Both the position numbers and the translations under genes were made by a program. A stretch of DNA of 57,809 bases from Chloroflexota bacterium (GTDB lineage Bacteria > Chloroflexota > Anaerolineae > B4-G1 > SLSP01), in NCBI GenBank assembly GCA_029555965.1, contig JAKQHY010000096.1, forward strand, positions 1 to 57,809. The letters run 5' to 3'. Positions 3,923-56,362 of this stretch are shown here, one piece after another; position 1 is the first letter of the stretch, and the number at the start of each line of letters is the position of its first letter. Below the pieces are notes generated by a model. The model did not search any database. It saw nothing but the letters and a program-made list of their open reading frames with translations, and had not been told where the DNA came from.

Positions 3923-6044
3923 CCTTCAACGCGAACACCGTCTCGCCATACAGCCCGGCGTAACGGCGGAGGGCGTCTTTGGTGGTGAAGAGGCTTTCTT
4001 GCACGGAGAGCAGGTTATCTTCCCACGCGGGGAACATCTGAAGCAATTGCTGCATGATCCAGGCGTTTAACCATGCCGGCTCGGCCCCGGCCACGTCCGG
4101 CGGCAGCCAGAGGCGCACGTACACCGGCTTGAGTCGCCATTTGGCCGTCATCACGGCTTCCAGGTCGCGCAAATACGTCCCGCCGGGCAGTTTTAACGTG
4201 TGGGTGAGGATCGCCGCGCGTTCCTTCGGCGTCGCGCAAGCGTCGCAGCCCAGGCAGTGGGACGAGCCTCCGGCCTGTCCGACTTCGCCCAAACAATACC
4301 CCTCATCCTCCCCCGCCATCGCCTGCCGGTATTTCTTGTAGAAATAGTCCGGCGCGATCCGCTGCTGCACGAACGCCAGCGGGAAAGCGTAATCCGGCCC
4401 CTTCTCGCCCAGAAAAGCCGCGTCCCAATGGCCGTTCTCCGCCAGCCAGCCGCGCAGCGCATCCCAATAACCGGGCGTGAGCGACAAATCGTAACAATGG
4501 CCCTGCTCCGCCAACGCGAGCACCGGGGCGTGCAGCCAATACCCGCCGAGCGCCAGTACCTGCGACGCCGCATACTCGTCCCACGGCGCGGCCAGCCGGA
4601 ACTCGAACCCGTTAGTCTCGCACGCCGACTTCGCCGGGCCGATGACGGGCCGCCAGTCAGCCTCCTCCAGAAACAGCCGGTCGTAGCGCAGCGGCGTGAA
4701 AGGCATCCGCACCAGCAGGCCAAAGCTGAAGATGACACGCAGGCCCCGGTTAGCGCGCTGCTGCATATCCCGTAGGTCGCGCGCGAAGTCGCGGAATTCG
4801 GCCAGGTCGGCCTCCGTCTCGTGGCCGGTGAGGATGTAGAACAGCTTGATCTCGCGGATTTTCTGCCGCAGCAGCCGCGCCAGCACGCCGTGAATCGCGG
4901 CGTCGGGCAGGCTCTTGTGCAGGAAGGCGCGCATCCGCCGGCTGATGCCCTCGATGCCCAGCGTGAAACTGCGCTTGTCGGCCATCACCTCCGCTTCCAG
5001 CATCCCCGGCGCGGACGCCAGCACGTCCACCCGCTGGCTCTTGAAGCTCACGCGATCAAACCTCCGGTTGAGGGCCAGCAACAGCGGCAAAATCTCCGCC
5101 TGCGTGTTGAAGTTGAAGCTGTACAAATCCACCGCCGCCGCGCCGCCGCGCTTGAGCTGCTGCGCCGCCGCCAGCACGTCCGCCTGGGCGACTTCGCGGT
5201 AGGGCTTGCGGTCGTAGCCCTCGAAGCAAAAGGAGCAGAACGCGGGGCAGCCGAAGTTGAGCTGCAAGCGCGCCGTCCCCGCCTCCTCCCCGTTGAGCAG
5301 CGGATAGACGGTCAGCAGGTCATCGGATTGGGGCGCAGCGCAGACGGCTTTGGACACAGATTCAACGGATTGAACGGATTCAACGGATTGTTGTCCGTTA
5401 CATCCGTGGGCAACCCACAGGCCAGTGGTCTGGGCGGCAGCGGATAACAGGCGCGCGCGTTTCGGCAGGTGCGCGTTTTCGGCCAGCAGGCGCAGCAGCG
5501 TCTCCACCTCGCGTTCCCCCTCCCCGAAGAAGAGCGCGTCGGCCATGCAGTCGCCCGCCGGCGTGAGGATCGCCTGCGTCGCCAGCGCGTTGGAGCCGCC
5601 GAGCAGGATCGGCGGGAAGTCCGCGCCGCGCGCGCTGGCCCACACCGGGATGCCGGAGTGGAGCAGCAAATACGGCAGGTTGATCAATTCGAGCGTGTAG
5701 GCGTTGGAGACCAGCACCACGTCGAAGTCCGCCGCCCCGCGCCAGGATTGCGTCCCCACCCACAGGGGGATGCCGGCGCGCAAGAATGCCTCGCGGTCGC
5801 GCTGTGGCGGGAAGAAGGCCATGTCCACGTAGGCGGCGGGCAGAGCGCGGCGCGCGGCCTGGAACAAGAACAGGTGCGGCGTCGAGCGTTCCACGTCCCG
5901 AAAGGGAGAGAGGCGCACGATCAGCGCGCGGAATGGGGCAGCGTCAAACGGGGGATTGCCAAACGTGGGGTTAGGGCGCGGCGTGTAAAGCGAAGCCTGT
6001 TGTAGGGTAGCCCAATGCTGAGTAAAAAACTCGTGATAATCCAT
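3849..6044 (-). CDS. B12-binding-domain radical SAM protein (TIGR03960-like, uncharacterised family)
   Basis: A CxxxCxxC motif (CPAFCSFC) follows a B12-binding-like N-terminal domain, and the length is ~730 aa. The likely start is the ATG at 6044, with GAAGG 4-7 nt upstream (the ORF's first codon is TTG at 6047). An in-frame heptamer-repeat segment (NGQQSVESVQSVESV) lies at 5357..5410. Confidence 0.8.
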   Translation of the reverse strand: MDYHEFFTQHWATLQQASLYTPRPNPTFGNPPFDAAPFRALIVRLSPFRDVERSTPHLFLFQAARRALPAAYVDMAFFPPQRDREAFLRAGIPLWVGTQSWRGAADFDVVLVSNAYTLELINLPYLLLHSGIPVWASARGADFPPILLGGSNALATQAILTPAGDCMADALFFGEGEREVETLLRLLAENAHLPKRARLLSAAAQTTGLWVAHGCNGQQSVESVQSVESVSKAVCAAPQSDDLLTVYPLLNGEEAGTARLQLNFGCPAFCSFCFEGYDRKPYREVAQADVLAAAQQLKRGGAAAVDLYSFNFNTQAEILPLLLALNRRFDRVSFKSQRVDVLASAPGMLEAEVMADKRSFTLGIEGISRRMRAFLHKSLPDAAIHGVLARLLRQKIREIKLFYILTGHETEADLAEFRDFARDLRDMQQRANRGLRVIFSFGLLVRMPFTPLRYDRLFLEEADWRPVIGPAKSACETNGFEFRLAAPWDEYAASQVLALGGYWLHAPVLALAEQGHCYDLSLTPGYWDALRGWLAENGHWDAAFLGEKGPDYAFPLAFVQQRIAPDYFYKKYRQAMAGEDEGYCLGEVGQAGGSSHCLGCDACATPKERAAILTHTLKLPGGTYLRDLEAVMTAKWRLKPVYVRLWLPPDVAGAEPAWLNAWIMQQLLQMFPAWEDNLLSVQESLFTTKDALRRYAGLYGETVFALKAWEGGERGRGGEGEYGSRGVWECG

Positions 6045-44572: not shown

Positions 44573-44866
44573 ATGAAAACAACAGTCTCGTACGATCCAG
44601 AAAGAGTATTAGCGACAGAAGAAAGCAAACTAAAAAGCAAATTGAGGGACAAACAAAGCCTTAAAGAATACGCAGTAGCTATACTGATCGCTATTGCGTA
44701 CTATGTCATTGCCAGCTTCTTTGGAGAGGATTCTTCAGTTACAGGAGCAATAACTTGGATGATGCTATGGATATTGCTTTGTCAGATAACTGATTTAGAA
44801 CGCAAAAATGCTGCACTAGAAAGGAAGCTCAACGAATTGGAAAAAAGCCTGGAGTGCGAACACTAA
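44573..44866 (+). CDS. ORFan small membrane / coiled-coil protein in an AT-rich island
   Basis: AGGAAA RBS, one TM segment, and a C-terminal coiled-coil. Local GC is far below the genome average. The 3' end overlaps the convergent gene by 38 bp. Confidence 0.45.
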   Translation: MKTTVSYDPERVLATEESKLKSKLRDKQSLKEYAVAILIAIAYYVIASFFGEDSSVTGAITWMMLWILLCQITDLERKNAALERKLNELEKSLECEH

Positions 44867-47519
44867 ACACCTCCGGTAAAATCACGTAGCCATCCTCCAC
44901 CCCGGTCGCCGGGAGCCGCTCTCCTGTTTCCGGGCGATACCAACCCACGGCAAGGCGATAATCGCCTGCCGGGAGATTCCACAGGCGCAGCGTCGCAGTG
45001 TCGTGGATGCGCTGCCCGGCTTGCCAACCGCTCGTGGGACACGCCCAGGCGCACGGGATGGCGTCGTATTGCCCAACTAACGCACCATCGGCATCCAACA
45101 AGTGGACGAACAGCTTGTAATCAGCGCCGGGCGCGCGCAGGACATCCCATTCCAGGGCAAGCTCCAGCAACGCGCCTTCCGTGCGCCAGTGGTAGCCCGC
45201 CAGCGCGATGGTATCGGCAAACATCACGCCACCAGATATGGGCCGAGTATAGCGCGCGCCGTCCGCCGCAACGAACCAATGCTCCGGCGGACGATAGGAC
45301 GCTCCCGCACAAGTGAAGCTCCATTGATAATCGCCCGGCGGAGCGTCCACCCGCACACTAAGTTCCCGCACCGCCAGGTCGCCGGCCTTGAGTGAAAAGC
45401 CCCCCCACTCCACGGCGGCGGTGTACACCGGCGAAGCCGCTTCTCCTGCCAGCGCCAACGTGCAAACTGGTAATACCGGCAGATCGCGCCAAACCCGCGC
45501 TACAATCTGAAAGCGCCACACGCCATCGGCATCAGGCTGAACATCGAAGCGGATTAGCGACAGGTCGTTGGAAAGAATCATAGGGAAGCCATCGTAGGTC
45601 ACGGTCAGCGGCGCGGTGAGGTCGTAGACGGCCAACGTCTCATCCTCGTAGACGGGCGCGAGCGGCAGGATGCGCCGGAAGTGAGCGTCCGCCGCCGCGT
45701 CCATAGTGGGCTTGTGGACGAGGACGTAGCGCACGCCGAGGTCGGCCAGTTCCCGGATCGCCGCGCCCACATCCTCCGGCGGGATGGCTTGTGCGGCGAT
45801 GGCGTCGCCGGGCAGCAGGAGCGGCTTCCCCTTGAGGTTGCTCTGATACAACGCACGGATCAGCGAATTGGACGTGATCAGCGTGTACAATTCCGGCGTG
45901 TAGCGCGAAACGTGCCCTTCCACCGTCGGCCTGCCGTGCAACGTCTGGTAATACAGCCACAACTTGGCCTCGTTGTACCCCATCGGGTAATCCAGCACCG
46001 CGTACTCCTCCCCATCCGCCGCCATCTGTGCGTAGAAGGGAGAAGCCGGCAGCAACTCCCAGCGCGGCAGCGGCAGGCAGAGGTATTCCGCCAGCAGCAG
46101 CAGGCCGAGAGGCAGCAACGCCCAGCGCCGCCGCAGCCGCGCCGCGCCATACCCCGCCAGCGCCGCCAACGAAAACACCGTCAGCGCGTTCAGCCGGTCG
46201 GGCGAGCGCAGCGTGGAGAAAGGGAATATGTCCGCGAGCCAACGGTAAGGCAAGCGGATCAGCGGATAAAGCGTCCCGTTCACCCGCAGCGCACTTCCGG
46301 CAGACAACAACAGCCACAAGAGCAAGGTGAGCAGCCAGAAAACCCATTCGTCAACGGATTTAACGGATTCAACGGATTTTTTCCGTCTCCATCCGCTCAA
46401 TCCGTTGAATCCGTTGAGAAAAATTGCCAGGAAAAGGACCCCATATCCCAGGTATGGCATGTACGCCCGGTTGGCGATGAATCGCTCGTAAATCGGCTGA
46501 ACCTGATCGCCCCACAGTGGGTGATATGTGGGCGGCACCAGGTAGGCCAGCAGATCAGTCTGGTGGCTCACGCCTTCGTTGAAGCCCTCCGTCCAACCGC
46601 TTTTCCAGGCGCGGGCAATGGGGATGAGCAGCGGCGCGCTCAACAGCCCGGCGACCGCCGCCACCACCAGCAGTCGCTTGCCCAGCTCCATCCAGCGGGA
46701 AAGCGCGCGCGGCGAACGCACCAGCAGCCATCCTACGTACCCCACCGTCCACAGCGCCAGCATCACGGCGAGTTGCAGCCCGGTCCACAACGTGAGCGCG
46801 GCGAAGATGCCGGCAGCTAAAGCATATCCATTCTTTCTCAACGGATTGAACGAATTGAAACGGATTTTCCGTTTGTCAGAATCTATACCGTTCTCTGAAT
46901 CGTTTTTTCTGTCAGCAGATTGAGCAGATTGAGCGGATTTTGGACTTAATCTGCTTAATCTGCTGACAAAATTTAACTTCAAAGACGCAGGCTGATAAAT
47001 CTGAAGCGCGCGGCGCAGCATCAAGGCATACCAGGGCCACCACTGAATGAAGCCGAGGTGCGCGTGGGAAAGCGCCTGGGTGAGGTGGTACGGCGCGAAG
47101 GTGAACACGAAGCCCGCGACGAGCGCGCCCGCCGAGTTGCGCGTCAGATCGTAGGTCAGCCAGAACATCCCCCCCGCGCCGATCCACAACCCGGCGAGCC
47201 ACACAAGGTTGGACGCCGCCACCGGCCCGACCACCGGCCGCAAGGGCAGCGCCAACAGCGAACTGAGGAACGAGTTGGAGTGCGCAACCAGGCTCGCGCC
47301 CTGGGGGAAAAAGGCATAAGGGGTAAACAGCACCGGCTGGCCCGTGGTGAGCGCCTTCGCCAGCCACCAATCGTTCCAATAGAAAATCCAGTTGTCCACG
47401 TTGTTGCCGATAAGATGGGTGGACAACGTCAGCGGCGCGGGCAAGGTCATCCATCCGACCAACAGGCCAAAGAACAAGCCCACCGCGCCCCATCGCTGCC
47501 AGTTCTGTCGCGTCTTCAT
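44829..47519 (-). CDS. Large polytopic membrane protein, GT-C/YfhO-like putative glycosyltransferase with a ~350-aa C-terminal extracytoplasmic domain
   Basis: Many TM helices N-terminally, then a soluble C-terminal domain. Two in-frame heptamer-repeat insertions, at 46350..46418 and 46838..46968. Confidence 0.65.
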   Translation of the reverse strand: MKTRQNWQRWGAVGLFFGLLVGWMTLPAPLTLSTHLIGNNVDNWIFYWNDWWLAKALTTGQPVLFTPYAFFPQGASLVAHSNSFLSSLLALPLRPVVGPVAASNLVWLAGLWIGAGGMFWLTYDLTRNSAGALVAGFVFTFAPYHLTQALSHAHLGFIQWWPWYALMLRRALQIYQPASLKLNFVSRLSRLSPKSAQSAQSADRKNDSENGIDSDKRKIRFNSFNPLRKNGYALAAGIFAALTLWTGLQLAVMLALWTVGYVGWLLVRSPRALSRWMELGKRLLVVAAVAGLLSAPLLIPIARAWKSGWTEGFNEGVSHQTDLLAYLVPPTYHPLWGDQVQPIYERFIANRAYMPYLGYGVLFLAIFLNGFNGLSGWRRKKSVESVKSVDEWVFWLLTLLLWLLLSAGSALRVNGTLYPLIRLPYRWLADIFPFSTLRSPDRLNALTVFSLAALAGYGAARLRRRWALLPLGLLLLAEYLCLPLPRWELLPASPFYAQMAADGEEYAVLDYPMGYNEAKLWLYYQTLHGRPTVEGHVSRYTPELYTLITSNSLIRALYQSNLKGKPLLLPGDAIAAQAIPPEDVGAAIRELADLGVRYVLVHKPTMDAAADAHFRRILPLAPVYEDETLAVYDLTAPLTVTYDGFPMILSNDLSLIRFDVQPDADGVWRFQIVARVWRDLPVLPVCTLALAGEAASPVYTAAVEWGGFSLKAGDLAVRELSVRVDAPPGDYQWSFTCAGASYRPPEHWFVAADGARYTRPISGGVMFADTIALAGYHWRTEGALLELALEWDVLRAPGADYKLFVHLLDADGALVGQYDAIPCAWACPTSGWQAGQRIHDTATLRLWNLPAGDYRLAVGWYRPETGERLPATGVEDGYVILPEVFSVRTPGFFPIR

Positions 47520-47670: not shown

Positions 47671-49128
47671 ATGATGCGCTTACGCAAATTTGGCTGGCTG
47701 CTCTTGCTCATCGCGGCGGGCGTCGCCTACTGGCTTCTCCCCATTCGCGGGCAGGTGATCATCACGCCGGGGGAAGTGGCGGACTGGCCCTGGCCGCGCC
47801 TCCGTCTGGAGCCGACCACGCCGCAGCCCGGCGACCGGGTGGAGGTGATGCTCACCGACGTGACGCCGTGGACTTTCGTGACGCTAACGGTGGACGGCGT
47901 CCCGGCACAGGCGCAGGGACAGGCCGTCCGCAGCGGCGTTGTCTGGACGTGGCGCTGGACATATACCGCGCCCGCCGCGCCCGCCGAGGTGATCTTCTAT
48001 CACGATTGTCACACCGGCTGCGTGGAGCGAGGCCGCTTCCCGCTGGGCGATCCGACGCCATCCCCCCGCCCGGCAACCACGCCGACGAAGCTTGGCCTAG
48101 TGATGCCCAGTCTCACCCGCGATTGGCACGGGCGCAGCGGCTGGGCCGTCGAAATCACCTACGCCCGCCGCGCCGAGGAGCCGTATTGGGGCGTGGACGA
48201 TCTGGCGGCGCGGATTACGGCGCATCACGCCCAGGGATTGCGCGTCCTCGTGCGCGTGGATTATGACCAGGAACAAAGCCTTCCGCCGACGGGCGACTAC
48301 GTCGCCCTGACCGAGTACCTGGAATACCTGCGCCGCCTGTCGCGCGACGCGCGCCTGCGCGAAGTCTACGGCTACGTGCTGGGCGCCGATTACAACACGG
48401 CGGAGGCAAACGGGTTGGCGGCAGGAAGGCCGGTCACGCCGGAGTGGTACGCCCGCCTCTGCAACGGCTATGGCGAGGACGTCAGCCACAGCGACAACGC
48501 CGTGCAAATCGTGCGGGCCGAAAATCCGCGTGTCCGCGTCATCGTCGGCCCGTTGCAGCCGTGGAGCGCCGATCAGGATGGTGCGCTGCCCTACACCATC
48601 AACCAGCCCTGGCTCAACGCCATGAACACCCTCGTCGCGCGGCTGGACGAAACCGCGCGCGCCAAAGCCGCTGCCGGCATCCCGCTGTCCGCGCCGGATG
48701 GCTTCGACGTGCAGGCGCCGGGCGCGCCGGATGCGCCGGAGATGGCGGGCACGCTCCGGGCCGACGAGCCGTCCGCCGAACTGCGCCGCGCGGTGTGGGG
48801 CGGCGCGCGGGCGGGCTTCGGCGTCTACCGGGACTGGCTGGACATCATCAACGCCTATCCGAGCACGCGCGGGCTGCCGGTCTACATCATCTCCACCAAC
48901 ACCTACGACCGCGCGGCGGGTATTCCGCCGGCGCAAAATTACCCCAAAGGCTGGCTCACCACCGCGCTGGACGTGGTCAACACCGAGCCGCAGATCGCGG
49001 CGCTGTGTTGGTTCCTCGACAATTTCCCGCACGGCGACCAGTGGGATTGGTTCAGCCTGACGCAGCGCCCCGGCCGGCTGGTGGACGCGGCGGAAGAGTT
49101 AGAGGCGTTGTTGCGGGGAGAAAATTAA
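47671..49128 (+). CDS. Secreted/membrane-anchored hypothetical protein with a TIM-barrel glycoside-hydrolase-like domain
   Basis: N-terminal signal/anchor and a Pro-rich linker. The domain shows alternating beta/alpha elements with conserved acidic residues. AGGAAA RBS. Confidence 0.45.
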   Translation: MMRLRKFGWLLLLIAAGVAYWLLPIRGQVIITPGEVADWPWPRLRLEPTTPQPGDRVEVMLTDVTPWTFVTLTVDGVPAQAQGQAVRSGVVWTWRWTYTAPAAPAEVIFYHDCHTGCVERGRFPLGDPTPSPRPATTPTKLGLVMPSLTRDWHGRSGWAVEITYARRAEEPYWGVDDLAARITAHHAQGLRVLVRVDYDQEQSLPPTGDYVALTEYLEYLRRLSRDARLREVYGYVLGADYNTAEANGLAAGRPVTPEWYARLCNGYGEDVSHSDNAVQIVRAENPRVRVIVGPLQPWSADQDGALPYTINQPWLNAMNTLVARLDETARAKAAAGIPLSAPDGFDVQAPGAPDAPEMAGTLRADEPSAELRRAVWGGARAGFGVYRDWLDIINAYPSTRGLPVYIISTNTYDRAAGIPPAQNYPKGWLTTALDVVNTEPQIAALCWFLDNFPHGDQWDWFSLTQRPGRLVDAAEELEALLRGEN

Positions 49129-49207: not shown

Positions 49208-50137
49208 TCAACCACTCTTCACGGCAATGCCGTAACCCACCGCCAATGCCACAAAGGCCGCCATTTCGTCCTTGGTGGGCGTGGGCAGGTCTTTGGCTTT
49301 GTAATCCAGGCCCAGACTGCGGTACTTGTCGCCAGCGAGGCGGTGGAAGGGGAGCAGCTCGAGGCGCGGCGGGGGCGCAGGGCTGCCACTCTGCGCGCGC
49401 AGTTCCGCAAGATCGCGGATGTACGCTGCAATCGCGCCGATCTCCTCCGGCGTGGCGTTCACGGTCGGCACGACGGGGGTACGGAACACCACCGGCTTAT
49501 TCGTCGCCATCAGCCGCCGGTGATTGTCGAGGATGCGCTCGTTGGGAACGCCGGTGATAGCGCGGTGCTTTTCCGAATCCATGTGCTTGATGTCGGTCAT
49601 CACGAAGTCGGTCACTTCGAGCAGTTTTTCCAGCCACTCCCAGGCGTAGTTGGCGTCGGTTTCGATGACGGTGTGGACGCCCCCAGCTTTGCTGCGCGCC
49701 AGGATTGCGTAGGAAAAGTCCAGTTGCAGCGCGGGTTCGCCGCCGGAGAGGGTCACGCCGCCGCCGGACGTGGCGTAGAAGGGGCGGTCGGCCAGGACTT
49801 CGGCCAACACATCGTCCACACTCATCGTTTTGCCGGTGAAGACGAGCGCCTCGGCATAGCACGTCTCCGCGCACTTGCCGCAGGCCACGCACTTGTCGCG
49901 GTCGTACACTTTCGCACCGTCCACCATCCCATGCGCGCCCTGCGGACACACGCCCAGGCACGCCCCACAGCCGATGCACTTGGATGGAAACACCTGGATT
50001 TCCGGTTTGGGCGACCAGGTCTCCGGGTTGTGACACCAGAAACAGCGCAGATTGCAGCCCTTAAGAAAGACGGTCGTGCGGATGCCAGGGCCGTCGTGGA
50101 GGGAAAACCGTTGGATGTTCGTGACAATACCTTGCAT
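49208..50137 (-). CDS. Glycyl-radical enzyme activating protein (PflA/NrdG-like radical SAM with an extra 2x[4Fe-4S] ferredoxin insert)
   Basis: A CNLRCFWCHNPE radical-SAM cluster and two CxxCxxCxxxCP ferredoxin motifs. No glycyl-radical enzyme gene is adjacent. Confidence 0.8.
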   Translation of the reverse strand: MQGIVTNIQRFSLHDGPGIRTTVFLKGCNLRCFWCHNPETWSPKPEIQVFPSKCIGCGACLGVCPQGAHGMVDGAKVYDRDKCVACGKCAETCYAEALVFTGKTMSVDDVLAEVLADRPFYATSGGGVTLSGGEPALQLDFSYAILARSKAGGVHTVIETDANYAWEWLEKLLEVTDFVMTDIKHMDSEKHRAITGVPNERILDNHRRLMATNKPVVFRTPVVPTVNATPEEIGAIAAYIRDLAELRAQSGSPAPPPRLELLPFHRLAGDKYRSLGLDYKAKDLPTPTKDEMAAFVALAVGYGIAVKSG

Positions 50138-50297
50138 AGCCTGCCCAATTCCTCGCCTGAAAAAGTGTGATACGCGCGCTCAACCGATTGCTCATCGCGC
50201 CAGCGAGCCTATTTTACACCTCTTGGGGAATTGCCTACATCCCCCTTCAATGCTATGATAGCCTCATACTTTACCTTGACCTATAACGAAGGCATTG

Positions 50298-50735
50298 ATG
50301 AACCCTAAACCCGATAGATACAAATGGAACGCCCACAGCATCCAGGCCTTGCGCCGCCACATGGGGCTGTCACAGCAAGAGATGGCCGCCGAATTGGGCA
50401 TCCGCCAGCAAACCGTCAGCGAGTGGGAGACTGACCGTTACCGTCCCCGCGGCGGGATGATCACACTGCTGACGATGGTGGCAGAGCGCGTCAGCTTTCT
50501 CCCGACGGACGCCGCGCCGGACGCTTCCGGCGACTGGCCGGAACAACCTATCACGCGGCTCGCGCTCAAGCCGCGTGCGACAAGCGCCTTGCAGCAATCC
50601 GGCTTGCACACCGTCGCGGCAGTCGTCGCGCGGTGGCGCGAAAACCGGCAGGGATTGCTGGATATTCCCGACTTTGGCGAGCGTTCACTGCAAGACCTGG
50701 AACGGAAACTGCGCGACCTGGGGTTGATTTACTGA
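50298..50735 (+). CDS. Fusion regulator: N-terminal XRE-family HTH plus a C-terminal RNA polymerase alpha subunit C-terminal domain (alphaCTD)-like domain
   Basis: HTH GLSQQEMAAELGIRQQTVSEWE. The C-terminal ITRLALKPRATSALQQSGLHTV...IPDFGERSLQDLERKLRDLGL resembles the RpoA alphaCTD helix-hairpin-helix. Confidence 0.6.
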   Translation: MNPKPDRYKWNAHSIQALRRHMGLSQQEMAAELGIRQQTVSEWETDRYRPRGGMITLLTMVAERVSFLPTDAAPDASGDWPEQPITRLALKPRATSALQQSGLHTVAAVVARWRENRQGLLDIPDFGERSLQDLERKLRDLGLIY

Positions 50736-50738
50736 TGC

Positions 50739-50767
50739 TTGACAAGAAACACGTTTGCGTGTAGAAT
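50739..50767 (+). promoter_or_regulatory. Near-consensus sigma-70 promoter TTGACA-17-TAGAAT
   Basis: Seen directly in sequence, immediately after the regulator stop and ~80 bp upstream of the small ORF at 50845. Confidence 0.6.
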
Positions 50768-50844
50768 ATTCCTAATCCAATTGTCAGGGATTTTGTTTTT
50801 ATCTTCACTACACGCTAACGTGTATCAATCAAAGGAGGCCGCAC

Positions 50845-51042
50845 ATGGGTACTTATGGGTTGAAAGGCGCCATCCAGGCATGGGATATGGGCAAACTGAC
50901 CACGGAACAAGCCATCGGGCAAATCCTGCTGCTGCTGACGGAGCTGCACGAGCGGATCACGGCTTTGGAAAAAGAGGCGCGCGCCCAAACGAAACGTACC
51001 CCACCCCCACCCACCACGCCACCGCCACAAATTGCGGCATAA
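50845..51042 (+). CDS. Small hypothetical protein (65 aa) with a coiled-coil and a Pro-rich tail
   Basis: Strong AAAGGAGG RBS 5 nt upstream of the ATG. A consensus promoter lies upstream. Confidence 0.5.
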   Translation: MGTYGLKGAIQAWDMGKLTTEQAIGQILLLLTELHERITALEKEARAQTKRTPPPPTTPPPQIAA

Positions 51043-51251
51043 AAGCAAAGGCGCAAAACGTAGATTCATCACAATGTTACTCGGCAAGATTGGCGTAATC
51101 CACGAGCATCTTTCAGGGACACGGGTTGGACGGGCTGAACGGCTCACACAGATAATTTTTAGGATTTAATCCGTGTTCATCCGTCTGATCCGTTCAATCC
51201 GTGTGCAAAATTCAGATTGTGGCTCAGCCGCCTTCTGGCCCACGCTTTGCG

Positions 51252-52115
51252 TCACGATAGGCCGGGGACGCCGTTGACGGTGCCGAGGGCGATGAAACGC
51301 AGGCTGCTCATCACGCCGATGACAGCGAGGGCGAAGACGAAGCCCCAGACCAGAGGCAACCAGGCCGTCCGCCAGCCGGTGAAGGCGCGGTCGCGGCCCA
51401 GGAGCATCACAAAGATCATTGCGCCAAGCGTGACGAACATCGTCAGCACTCCCCACGCGCTGTAAAGAGAAACGGGATAGAGCAGCCAGGGTTCCAACAT
51501 AAGGATAAGAGCCGCCAGCGCAACCTCGATCACGACTAGCAACGCCAATTCATGCCACGAGCGCAGCACGCGGGACTCATCGCCATCGGCCCAGAAGGTC
51601 TGGTTGAAGGCCGGCGCGAGGATGGCGCTCATCCCCGCCCCCATCAGCACGCCGGAAAGCAAGCGCAGCCACGGTTGCGGCGCGTACCCCAGAATTCCTT
51701 CCGGGCGATTGAGCAACATCGTGGTGTACGAGTTGAAGCCGTCCAGCCCCCACACGGCGGCAAATCCGGCAAAGACGAGCAGCATCGTCCAACGGGGAAA
51801 ACCGCGCGCTGTCCGTCGCCGCCAGAGTCCCCATTGCAGCAACAGTCCCGTCAGTGCGCCGGGAAATGTCCCGGTGCAACGCTGGCACAGCGGCAGTTGG
51901 TGCTCGTGAATGAAGAAAGAGTGCGACGCGATACGATGACACACCGCCGACGCGATGACATCAATCTTGGCGAGCAAGCCCGGGGGCGTCAGGGCCAAGA
52001 AAGCAATGCTCCCCGCCACGGCAAGGAGCAGGCCGGCCCAGACCCAAAACGGGGCAAAATCGGCCCGGCGGGATTCCGGCGCAACGGGAGGGGTATCCAA
52101 GGGGGCGTTCATCAT
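51252..52115 (-). CDS. DUF2085 family membrane protein
   Basis: CHRIASHSFF...CQRCTG motif and multi-TM architecture. The start overlaps the upstream stop (ATGA). Confidence 0.65.
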   Translation of the reverse strand: MMNAPLDTPPVAPESRRADFAPFWVWAGLLLAVAGSIAFLALTPPGLLAKIDVIASAVCHRIASHSFFIHEHQLPLCQRCTGTFPGALTGLLLQWGLWRRRTARGFPRWTMLLVFAGFAAVWGLDGFNSYTTMLLNRPEGILGYAPQPWLRLLSGVLMGAGMSAILAPAFNQTFWADGDESRVLRSWHELALLVVIEVALAALILMLEPWLLYPVSLYSAWGVLTMFVTLGAMIFVMLLGRDRAFTGWRTAWLPLVWGFVFALAVIGVMSSLRFIALGTVNGVPGLS

Positions 52116-54397: not shown

Positions 54398-56362
54398 CTA
54401 GGGCTTACATAGAGTCTCTTCGCATAAGCGCAAATGCCCCACCGCATCGGTGAAGTCCCACCCTTGACTGAGAAGTGTCACCCCGATTTGATCGTAGCCT
54501 GCGCTCACTGCCGCCTCGGGGACGGCGACGCAATAGCGATTCAGGTATTCCGGCTGCAAGGGCGCGGGCGGAATTGACTGTTGGGCGATAAGGTCACTTC
54601 CCTCGTAGTAGAAGAGAGCAACGGCATCGGTATGATACAGGCTCACCTCAACGTAAGGAGCGTGCTGTGCGCCTGGCAGCGCAATCAACAGGCCGCCGGC
54701 GTTGAGGGTGAAGACTTCGTCCCACTGAACGGCGCCCTCTTTTATCGCGCTCATCTCTTGCAATGGCAGCCGCGAGGCATAATAGCTGTAAAACGCTTTG
54801 TCAATCAGGCGCTCGTACTGCCCGGTGTTCATCTTCCAAATCGCCTCCCAACGCCCCGGCGCAAACAGGCTCCCGCGCGTGATCAGCGTCAGTTGGTCGT
54901 AAAACCGCGCCAGGTTCGGGTCGGCGATGAGGGCTTCGCCCCGTTCCAGGGATGCCAGGTAGCCTTCCGGGAAAACCCGGCGGAAGTGCCCGATGCGCCA
55001 GGGCTGTTTGACGACGGGCAGCCGCGCCAAAAGCGGATCGGCCAGGGCGTTGTCATCCACAATGTGAACGCTAGGGCCGGCGTAGAAGCCGATAAAGCCG
55101 ATGGCGCCGCGCGAAAAGACGCGGGGGCCGTCGGTGCGGCGGTTGCGCCCTTCAACGGCCCAGGGGTGATTGGGCATCTGCACGTCACGCGCCAGGGTGA
55201 GCAGGCTGGTGGCCTGGTAATACACGCCGCGCTCGTCGCCGACGCCCTGATTGCCCGCGAAAGCGTCGCCGGAGAGACCGTAAGCGCCGTCGCTGATCAG
55301 GGTGGGGAAGGGGGACAGCAACCCCACCAGGAAAATGAGGGCGAAGGGCAGGTATTTAACCGAGAGGTTTTCCATAAACTCGCTTTGCCCCAGCAAGATG
55401 ACGGCGAAGAACAGCGGGGCGGTGAGAAAGCGCCCGCTCATAAAATCGCCGCCGACCCACACCACGTAGGCAACGTACAGGAGGATGCCCAGCGCCGCGA
55501 TCCAATCGCGCGTGACGCGCCGCTTAACCGTCGCCAGCAGCGCAAACGCTATGCCGGTCAGGGTCAGCGGATCCCAGTTGAGCGAGTTGAGCAGGTAGAT
55601 GAGGCCCTGCTTGATCAACTCATCGTGGGGGATTCCCGTGTTGAGCTTGGCGTAGTAGGTGTTGGGCAAAGCGAAGCCGTAGTAGACGATGGAAAAGGCT
55701 TCCCACAGCACGAGGGGCAAAAACCCTGCGCCCAGGGCCAGCCAGCCGCGCCAACTCTTGGTTTTCAACCCGGCATAGATCAGCGCGGGTGCAAAAATCA
55801 GCAACAGGTCCAGGCGAGTCAACATGCCCAATGCCGCGAAAAGCGCCAGCTTGCTCAAAGTTTTCGGGTCAAAGGTTTCCGCGCGAAGGTAGACCCACAG
55901 GAACAGCGCGATGAGGAGGTGCGTCAACGGGTTTTCCAGTCCCGACGTGGAATAATCCACGAAAGCCTTCGACAGCAGCAACAACGAGCCGCCCAGCAGC
56001 AGCGTCCAGGGCGAGCGCGCCGTTTTTGCCGCCCACAGCAGGGCGGCGCACGAGACGCCGATGGAGACGATGTGCAGCGTGAAAAAGGCCTCGCGGGTGA
56101 AGAAATAGAAAAATGCCAGGACGAACATCCACAATGGATGCGTGTACGCCTGCACCCGCTCGTTGACGTTCCAGGTCAGCCCGTAGCCGTGGACGAAATT
56201 GTCCACCGTGCGGAGCGTGATGTAAGCGTCATCGCACAACCAGGCGGTTCTGACCAGCAGCGCGACCCACACCACCAGCAACAACCACGCGACCAGGGTT
56301 TGAGAACGTCTGGCCGACTTCTGCCCCTCGGCACAGTTTGTCATGGGTTCACCTTCAAACAT
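54398..56362 (-). CDS. Large GT-C-type membrane glycosyltransferase-like protein (arabinofuranosyl/mannosyl-transferase-like)
   Basis: ~11 TM helices N-terminally with a conserved DDAYI-type loop motif (LCDDAYITLR), and a soluble C-terminal domain. Alternative start at 56344. Confidence 0.55.
   Translation of the reverse strand: MFEGEPMTNCAEGQKSARRSQTLVAWLLLVVWVALLVRTAWLCDDAYITLRTVDNFVHGYGLTWNVNERVQAYTHPLWMFVLAFFYFFTREAFFTLHIVSIGVSCAALLWAAKTARSPWTLLLGGSLLLLSKAFVDYSTSGLENPLTHLLIALFLWVYLRAETFDPKTLSKLALFAALGMLTRLDLLLIFAPALIYAGLKTKSWRGWLALGAGFLPLVLWEAFSIVYYGFALPNTYYAKLNTGIPHDELIKQGLIYLLNSLNWDPLTLTGIAFALLATVKRRVTRDWIAALGILLYVAYVVWVGGDFMSGRFLTAPLFFAVILLGQSEFMENLSVKYLPFALIFLVGLLSPFPTLISDGAYGLSGDAFAGNQGVGDERGVYYQATSLLTLARDVQMPNHPWAVEGRNRRTDGPRVFSRGAIGFIGFYAGPSVHIVDDNALADPLLARLPVVKQPWRIGHFRRVFPEGYLASLERGEALIADPNLARFYDQLTLITRGSLFAPGRWEAIWKMNTGQYERLIDKAFYSYYASRLPLQEMSAIKEGAVQWDEVFTLNAGGLLIALPGAQHAPYVEVSLYHTDAVALFYYEGSDLIAQQSIPPAPLQPEYLNRYCVAVPEAAVSAGYDQIGVTLLSQGWDFTDAVGHLRLCEETLCKP

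Follow-up and report, generated by a model that had tools for sequence, protein, structure and literature searches.

Regulators of the XRE (Cro/C1) type can be paired with a small partner protein, as is the case in SinR–SinI and in WhiJ–BldB (XRE–DUF397). A further DNA-binding module is the C-terminal domain of the α subunit of RNA polymerase (αCTD), which in Escherichia coli binds DNA via its “265 determinant” (R265, N268, C269, G296, K298 and S299), contacts σ region 4 via the “261” determinant and CAP or another activator via the “287” determinant. We know of no XRE/Cro-C1 repressor that was described with an αCTD domain, and in Chloroflexota there are, to our knowledge, almost no characterised transcription factors. 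Here, we present a module from a Chloroflexota bacterium (contig JAKQHY010000096.1, 57,809 nucleotides, in the following called the window) that consists of a gene for a fusion of both domains, a near-consensus promoter with two palindromes and a gene encoding a small orphan protein. With moderate confidence we suggest that the 145-aa fusion protein is a repressor of the adjacent small-protein gene and that its αCTD-like domain adds DNA contacts.

Architecture of the module

The regulator gene (50298–50735, forward strand) starts with ATG at 50298 and ends with the stop codon at 50733–50735, which gives a product of 145 amino acids. The 146 residues of the original prediction result only when the in-frame TTG at 50295 is taken as start; the ATG is to be preferred because the homologues open with MNPK or MSAK. 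According to Pfam, a sequence search in the Protein Data Bank (PDB), an AlphaFold2 (AF2) model and Foldseek, the N-terminal part is an XRE/Cro-C1 helix-turn-helix (HTH; residues ~12–64, nucleotides 50331–50489) that is connected by a flexible linker (residues ~65–80) with an αCTD-like domain of the double helix-hairpin-helix type, (HhH)2 (residues ~82–145, nucleotides 50541–50732). Both halves of the fusion, which had been proposed from the sequence alone, score above the Pfam gathering cutoffs: HTH_3 (PF01381) with 41.4 bits against 23 for residues 15–57, and RNA_pol_A_CTD (PF03118) with 29.7 bits against 23.8 for residues 82–139. The AF2 model calculated from 21 homologues (pLDDT 82) predicts both domains with confidence, whereas the linker at residues 70–79 is of low confidence. 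In its N-terminal domain helices are found at residues 12–22, 26–33, 37–44 and 53–64 with pLDDT values of 86–91, and model and Foldseek together reveal the fold of a five-helix bundle in which helices 2 and 3 form the HTH, with P22 c2, C.Kpn2I, SinR and HigA2 as structural neighbours. The regulator family comprises ~21 full-length relatives with 53–89% identity from Anaerolineae/Chloroflexota metagenomes (mean column identity of the 21-sequence alignment 61%), and a profile search extended the fusion regulators to ~68 clusters in two subfamilies, the second of which is only ~40% identical. In the public third-party annotation of the identical sequence (P0006, HNT76904.1) the protein starts at Met60, covers 50475–50735 and is an 86-aa “RNA polymerase alpha CTD domain-containing protein”. 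As this annotation is cut to the αCTD half, the HTH half and with it the architecture are hidden in the record; the complete 145-aa call (P0347) is present on the 57,809-bp contig.

The distance between the end of the regulator gene and the next −35 element amounts to 3 nt. This element belongs to a near-consensus sigma-70-type promoter of the small-protein gene (50739–50767, forward strand), already pointed out in the original prediction, with TTGACA at 50739–50744, a spacer of 17 nt and TAGAAT at 50762–50767. It matches the consensus in 11 of 12 positions and is the best-scoring site of the 3.5 kb scanned. Two palindromic, putative operators that had escaped the first reading are the feature from which the mechanism is deduced. 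The 14-bp palindrome ACACGnnnnCGTGT has exactly two exact matches in the 57,809 bp, and both fall into one 75-bp stretch. The first putative operator, O1 (ACACGTTTGCGTGT, 50749–50762), fills the promoter spacer in such a way that the −10 hexamer begins with its final T. The second one, O2 (ACACGCTAACGTGT, 50810–50823), begins 61 bp after the start of O1 and lies 7 nt upstream of the ribosome-binding site (RBS), a Shine-Dalgarno sequence AAAGGAGG read at 50831–50838 on the forward strand, 6 nt before the ATG at 50845. From there the small-protein gene (65 aa plus stop, 50845–51042, forward strand) extends exactly as predicted.

The leader between the −10 hexamer and O2 contains a degenerate hairpin (ATTCCT...AGGGAT) followed by a preserved T-tract, TTTTGTTTTT at 50791–50800; together they occupy 50768–50800 on the forward strand. 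With −3.0 kcal/mol (z = −0.4; whole leader z = −0.07) the folding of this hairpin is weak, and an Rfam scan of 50100–51400 at E ≤ 1 gave no match. The regulator gene has a probable promoter of its own (50231–50259, forward strand; TTGCCT, 17 nt, TATGAT) with 9 of 12 consensus matches and an extended −10 TG, and its sequence AATTGCCTACMTCCCCCWTCMATGCTATGAT is kept in three related loci (L169, L170 and L171), with the DNA further upstream in L171 being unrelated. The palindromic operator is absent from this promoter.

Conservation and origin of the module

The same architecture recurs in ~39 Chloroflexota metagenome loci (35 parsed loci and L170–L173), mostly with an HTH protein of ~80 aa that has no αCTD. 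The conserved order is TTGACA, 4 nt, O1 overlapping the −10 hexamer, a hairpin with T-run, O2, an RBS of the GGAG type and a small open reading frame (ORF) starting with MGTYGL. The position of O1 relative to −35 and −10 is identical in all parsed loci, the promoter is TTGACA/TATAAT in most of them, and the RBS is conserved at the same position. Regulator and small ORF occur in synteny in 14 of 15 fusion loci with available downstream sequence, with varying flanking genes, so that the compact pair of regulator and downstream gene, originally deduced from one locus, is a conserved unit. The full order was found in L001, L002, L081, L083, L163, L165, L167, L168, L170, L171, L172, L173 and the window, and it is shared by both fusion subfamilies (40% identity to each other). 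In L164 a gap of ~450 nt separates both genes, and a scan of the 300 nt preceding the small ORF revealed only one recognisable palindrome. The sole fusion locus without the small ORF is L166 (3369–5351), where a 105-aa ORF and a transposase of the ISL3/IS66 type come after the regulator gene, which suggests that this module was disrupted by an insertion. Sub-clades show partial local synteny: an Exo_endo_phos gene is located directly upstream of the regulator in L163, L166 and L167, and the second-subfamily loci L172 and L173 have a gene for an unannotated protein of ~740 aa upstream and a YqeC/NTP_transf_3 gene downstream.

Since ~26 loci with an ~80-aa HTH lacking the αCTD carry the same module, it predates the αCTD fusion. 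In a neighbour-joining tree of HTH domains (excluding L170–L173) 12 fusion proteins form one clade, which argues for a single fusion event, at least in the sampled lineage; the nearest non-fusion neighbours are mostly short HTHs that are linked with the small ORF. Some differences between the two types of loci have accumulated. The main fusion subfamily has TAGAAT or TAAAAT as −10 hexamer, whereas TATAAT is found in short-HTH loci as well as in L172 and L173. O1 and O2 are spaced by 58–67 bp in fusion loci and mostly by 68 bp in short-HTH loci (medians 62.5 versus 68 bp, p = 1.5e-4).

Most other loci possess a GC-rich terminator-like hairpin and a T-run between −10 and O2. Leader folds reach a median z of −2.3 per locus, with values below −2 in 22 of 33 loci. 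The stems comprise at least seven distinct sequences that differ between sub-clades (e.g., CCCCGG/CCGGGG followed by TTTTATTT in L081 and GATCC/GGATC followed by GATTTTTT in L173); L170 and L171, the loci closest to the window, share with it a decayed stem and a retained T-tract. RNAalifold applied to 30 O1-to-O2 segments predicted only the O1 palindrome, with the differing stems left unaligned by MAFFT. The hairpin could be either the terminator of the regulator gene or an attenuator of the small gene.

A phylum-wide promoter–operator cassette

The short HTH proteins belong to a very large family of at least 4,936 clusters (E ≤ 1e-10), and two contig collections contain more than 580 loci each. 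All named taxa, i.e. Anaerolineae, Dehalococcoidia, Chloroflexia and Thermoflexia, are Chloroflexota; one further record is labelled “uncultured bacterium”. In most of ~167 loci the palindrome ACACGnnnnCGTGT adjoins genes of this family. In 49 loci it resides inside the promoter spacer of the HTH gene itself, and the distance from −10 to the start codon of these genes is exactly 6 nt in 34 and 6–8 nt in 42 of the 49. The typical layout, TTGAC-N4-ACACGnnnnCGTGT overlapping a TAAGAT-type −10, is represented by L090, L011, L017, L105, L110, L111 and ~40 others. Judged from this arrangement, these short-HTH genes seem to lack a leader and to be autoregulated.

In other loci the cassette is placed 3′ of the HTH gene, and the stop codon TGA of the latter is often part of the −35 hexamer TTGACA. 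The genes driven from there are variable, namely DUF2851-like genes in L116, L141, L049, L030, L026 and L062, macro-domain genes in L146, L150, L152 and L055, and CoA-binding genes in L093, L071 and L161, names that were read from translated N-termini and are not tool matches. Six loci (L108, L112, L029, L120, L129 and L135) exhibit two operators with no obvious ORF after them and may encode a small RNA.

This distribution bears on the question whether the palindromes act in DNA at all. It can be argued that palindromes and hairpin control termination or translation as an RNA-level leader, since O2 would fold as a 5-bp hairpin at a distance of 7 nt from the Shine-Dalgarno sequence and is preceded in most loci by the terminator-like hairpin with T-run. 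We consider such an RNA-level leader highly improbable. O1 is situated upstream of the predicted transcription start, in the 49 leaderless-type HTH genes the palindrome occupies a promoter spacer that is not transcribed, and the leader of the window is neither unusually stable (see its z value above) nor matched in Rfam. Moreover, the 6-nt geometry between −10 and start codon is what is expected of a leaderless mRNA, an independent argument for the palindrome in these genes being a DNA operator in a working promoter. For Chloroflexota this provides a testable regulator–operator pair, a 14-bp palindrome in the spacer of a consensus promoter, that concerns at least 4,900 protein clusters.

The αCTD-like domain

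Among PDB sequences the regulator has its top match (phmmer) in the αCTD of RpoA from Mycobacterium tuberculosis (E = 1.2e-6). The modelled C-terminal domain forms the compact fold with two HhH motifs and, as the comparison with RpoA structures called for in the first place confirmed, superposes on solved αCTDs (7vpd_S, 3n4m_B, 1lb2_B and 9dvt_A; Foldseek) with root-mean-square deviations (rmsd) of 0.8–1.2 Å over 56–65 residues and target-normalised TM-scores of 0.77–0.90. For 7vpd_S the values are 0.8 Å, 57 residues and 0.90, and for 3n4m_B the rmsd is 0.9 Å. BLASTP returned no alignment of the domain with the E. coli αCTD, for which it is too short and divergent. The regulator is by no means an RpoA protein: NCBIfam models of RpoA give 14–34 bits compared with cutoffs of 227–523, and with 145 aa and an HTH at its N-terminus it has no place for the dimerisation and assembly domain of RpoA (~310–350 aa).

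An exhaustive search with the domain yielded 107 representatives at E ≤ 1e-3, most of them not of RpoA length. They include proteins with 4–7 tandem copies of PF03118 as well as fusions with NusA-KH, ribosomal protein L31 and pentapeptide repeats. The domain of the window groups with these αCTD-like modules and not with RpoA, so it was apparently drawn from a pool of reused modules. Thus, the original view of the fusion as an unusual combination has to be divided: an αCTD outside RpoA is not exceptional because such modules occur in many other proteins, but the HTH_3–αCTD architecture itself is uncommon, and in the literature we found no description of it or of the palindromic operator. Several of the relatives deserve mention on their own. 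Two L31 proteins (P0270 and P0254) carry a C-terminal αCTD-like domain that is 47% identical to that of the window and has the same 3-residue insertion (see below), and one copy of an L31–αCTD fusion is encoded on a 557-kb NCBI contig. P0241–P0244, P0247 and P0257 are proteins of 450–1,900 aa with 3–10 matched, mostly tandem PF03118 stretches, some multi-αCTD proteins also having pentapeptide or HNH-repeat regions, and P0246 is a NusA-KH protein with an αCTD. This reuse in tandem arrays and in L31, NusA-KH and HTH fusions bears on minor-groove recognition of the UP-element type outside RNA polymerase, and the fusion with the HTH represents a natural experiment on what an αCTD is capable of once it is detached from the polymerase.

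Which surfaces have been kept was deduced from a MAFFT alignment of the 21 family sequences with the αCTDs of E. coli (reference sequence checked with the aid of the M. tuberculosis alignment) and M. tuberculosis. R265, G296 and S299 have invariant counterparts, the counterpart of K298 is R or K in 18 of 21 sequences, and that of C269 is an invariant Ala. The 261 determinant (DD-E in E. coli) is not retained, since positions 258, 259 and 261 read T/A, R and A/x, and neither is the 287 determinant, as positions 285–288 are variable and follow a 3-residue insertion without counterpart in RpoA. These data speak to the original proposal that the regulator mimics or competes with the αCTD of the polymerase, i.e. 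that the tethered domain contacts σ region 4, an activator, RNA polymerase or an UP-element and thereby recruits, traps or displaces the enzyme. The domain has a true αCTD fold with 37–39% identity to actinobacterial αCTDs, occupancy of O1 puts the protein between −35 and −10 beside the expected positions of σ region 4 and αCTD, and the −10 hexamer of the main fusion subfamily is slightly sub-consensus. Nevertheless, the alignment lends no support to mimicry: most of the residues that bind DNA have been kept, in contrast to the surfaces for contact with σ and activators. In addition, the module works without any αCTD in the ~26 short-HTH loci, and the domain is most closely related to modules outside RpoA. 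We therefore judge a mimic or competitor of the polymerase domain to be improbable.

The small protein

The small protein has homologues in 209 clusters of 52–67 aa that are all unannotated (“hypothetical”, no Pfam domain), and wherever the source is named it is Chloroflexota. Conservation is concentrated in the N-terminal ~45 residues, MGTYGLxGxIxAWxxGxLTTEQAIGQILLLLxEL..R...LE, with 14 invariant columns in the alignment. Among 11 orthologues from fusion loci the variable sites are distributed over the three codon positions as 25/10/42, and synonymous to non-synonymous codon differences amount to 997:645 in frame compared with 145:1439 and 76:1519 out of frame. Since changes concentrate at third positions and the synonymous excess occurs in the annotated frame only, the small ORF is a real gene. 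The original description as a coiled-coil, Pro-rich protein holds only in part. In the AF2 model (pLDDT 86 overall and ~96 in the core) the conserved part is a helical hairpin with a short helix (6–14), a turn and a long helix (20–51), whereas the disordered C-terminal tail is variable and its Pro-rich nature in the window is not conserved. In L002 (~4764–4850) a 12-nt tandem repeat, ACATAACTACAA, of ~6 copies is found directly past the stop codon of the small ORF.

No significant match was obtained in Pfam, NCBIfam, PADLOC, PHROGs, a profile search of the PDB or Foldseek against the PDB. Weak Foldseek matches with helices of the RNA polymerase β′ subunit (E > 2) were dismissed as they are unsupported by sequence, and a phage origin was rejected because none of the viral contigs scanned carries the small protein. 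Selection clearly acts on this family, and its expression is probably under tight control.

Two small neighbouring genes in variable genomic contexts remind of a type II toxin–antitoxin or addiction module, with the HTH protein as antitoxin and repressor and the small helical protein as toxin. The HTH resembles those of the antitoxins MqsA, HigA and HipB, albeit below the curated cutoffs, and a strong promoter with two operators would suit the tight control of a harmful product. However, the small-protein gene is served by a promoter of its own and stands apart from the regulator gene through a terminator-like hairpin in most loci, so both do not form a co-transcribed autoregulated operon; the operator is also absent from the promoter of the regulator. 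The same cassette drives DUF2851-like, macro-domain and CoA-binding genes elsewhere, and among toxin, defence and phage families no match of the small protein was obtained. Neither the co-transcribed autoregulated pair nor the recognisable toxin that characterise type II systems is thus found, and an addiction module seems quite improbable.

Our most likely guess for the small protein is a role in the same circuit, either as a protein-binding partner or as an antagonist, and the most attractive idea is that of an anti-repressor. In a switch similar to SinR/SinI it would bind the HTH regulator, and derepression would become self-reinforcing and bistable. No sensor domain is present in the regulator, above all in its 80-aa form, so the input could plausibly come from a protein partner. 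In addition, the small protein displays a strictly conserved surface (GTYG, W13, T19-EQ, GQ-LLL) that is not that of a generic coiled coil, its tail is conserved as RLERYxERVRRLG in short-HTH loci and variable in fusion loci, and the gene pair is strictly syntenic. On the other hand, there is no similarity in sequence or fold with SinI, SlrA or DUF397/BldB, and gene order and promoter logic are unlike those of sinI–sinR. As a complete explanation of the module such a switch is therefore rather doubtful, if still conceivable.

Proposed mechanism of regulation

In the scheme that we prefer, repression of the small-protein gene by the fusion protein, the XRE-type HTH, presumably as a dimer, would bind the palindrome ACACG-N4-CGTGT. 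Occupancy of O1 in the spacer of a strong promoter and overlapping its −10 hexamer would block RNA polymerase, and O2, ~60 bp downstream and just before the RBS, could add cooperative binding, looping or a roadblock. The regulator would be expressed from its own promoter, and since that promoter is operator-free we propose that the target is kept off until the repressor is inactivated by some signal. A repressor is likelier than an activator because a near-consensus promoter should not need activation. The design of an operator embedded in the promoter was presumably inherited from the extensive family of ~80-aa HTH proteins in Chloroflexota; one lineage would then have acquired, via a flexible linker, an αCTD-like HhH module that stems from the paralogous pool and not from RpoA itself and that most probably contributes minor-groove contacts with A/T-rich flanks of the operators.

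The flanks seem to agree with such a role. In a comparison of 8 fusion with 25 short-HTH loci, which are phylogenetically non-independent, the number of A residues among the 5 nt preceding O1 is 4 versus 2 (p = 6e-4), and the AT content reaches 80% versus 65% in the 20 nt preceding O2 (p = 0.003) and 67% versus 42% in the 12 nt that follow it (p = 2e-4). These A/T-richer flanks would fit a minor-groove-binding αCTD. The T-tract upstream of O2 was also considered as an αCTD-specific site; this assumption is weakened by a T-run at similar distance in short-HTH loci, which, judged by eye, is shorter and less A/T-rich.

Several observations weigh against the proposed repression and the contribution of the αCTD-like domain. 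Besides the small and related sample just mentioned, the DNA of fusion loci is slightly AT-richer overall (44% versus 39%), and after subtraction of the AT content of each locus the difference in the 20 nt before O2 drops to p = 0.015. N268, which in E. coli α contacts the UP-element, is variable in the regulator family. The O1–O2 spacing is not uniform in fusion loci (58–67 bp) and so shows no strict helical phasing of the kind expected for looping. A hairpin with T-run between promoter and ORF is odd for simple repression and may point to an extra attenuation step, and in the window itself this hairpin is degenerate. Finally, binding of the HTH to the palindrome is suggested by guilt by association.

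A more far-reaching scheme can also be imagined in which, in the fusion lineage, the αCTD-like domain of the operator-bound regulator engages RNA polymerase or the αCTD sites of the promoter and so holds or poises the enzyme instead of only keeping it out, and the small protein is an anti-repressor or a factor binding RNA polymerase or σ, both together forming a phylum-wide switch. We regard this as a long shot; if true, such a polymerase-poising regulator would be the first transcription factor with its own copy of a polymerase domain acting on the polymerase.

Genomic neighbourhood

Between the small ORF and a DUF2085 gene the convergent intergenic region of the window harbours a long imperfect inverted repeat (51119–51204) with arms of 24 nt (79% complementarity) and 15 nt (87%) and repeated ATCCGT motifs. 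The 209-nt region containing it folds with z = −2.67 and has no Rfam match; the repeat may act as a terminator in both directions or represent a structured RNA. Three large candidate ORFs near the module are without Pfam match at E ≤ 1e-5, namely 44829–47519 (reverse strand, 896 aa), 47671–49128 (forward, 485 aa) and 54398–56362 (reverse, 654 aa).

Comparison with known systems

The core of the device is familiar, i.e. an XRE repressor with promoter-embedded operators. With the XRE/Cro-C1 repressors of the phages 434 and P22, SinR and the C proteins the regulator shares the five-helix HTH_3 domain and, as far as can be deduced, a short palindromic operator in two copies, with half-sites ~9 bp apart and overlapping the core promoter. 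It differs in that the operator is located in the −35/−10 spacer of a downstream gene and not in that of the regulator's own gene, that the target is an orphan small protein and that the family is restricted to Chloroflexota among the sequences retrieved. The same holds for the C proteins of restriction–modification systems in particular, whose operators lie upstream of their own gene and not downstream of it; no restriction–modification genes are present near the module, the neighbourhood of which contains radical-SAM, DUF2085 and His_Phos genes.

Compared to antitoxins of the HigA, MqsA and HipB type the similarity comprises a small two-gene module in variable contexts and a hit with TIGR03830 (E = 1e-8, but 35 bits with a cutoff of 61.8). 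Scores below the cutoffs, the separate promoter of the target, the intervening terminator-like element and the lack of a recognisable toxin set the module apart from them. To RpoA αCTDs (PF03118) the C-terminal domain is related by its (HhH)2 fold, a score above the Pfam cutoff and the largely retained equivalents of R265, G296, K298 and S299, in contrast with the missing α N-terminal assembly domain, the 3-residue insertion and the loss of the 261 and 287 determinants.

Finally, SinR–SinI and WhiJ–BldB resemble the module in the pairing of an XRE regulator with a helical protein of ~55–65 aa without DNA-binding domain. The small protein described here is not detectably homologous to SinI or DUF397, however, and its gene is the putative repressed target located downstream of the regulator. 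Novel features are the accessory domain of the αCTD type, the small orphan protein as target and a promoter–operator cassette that extends across the phylum.

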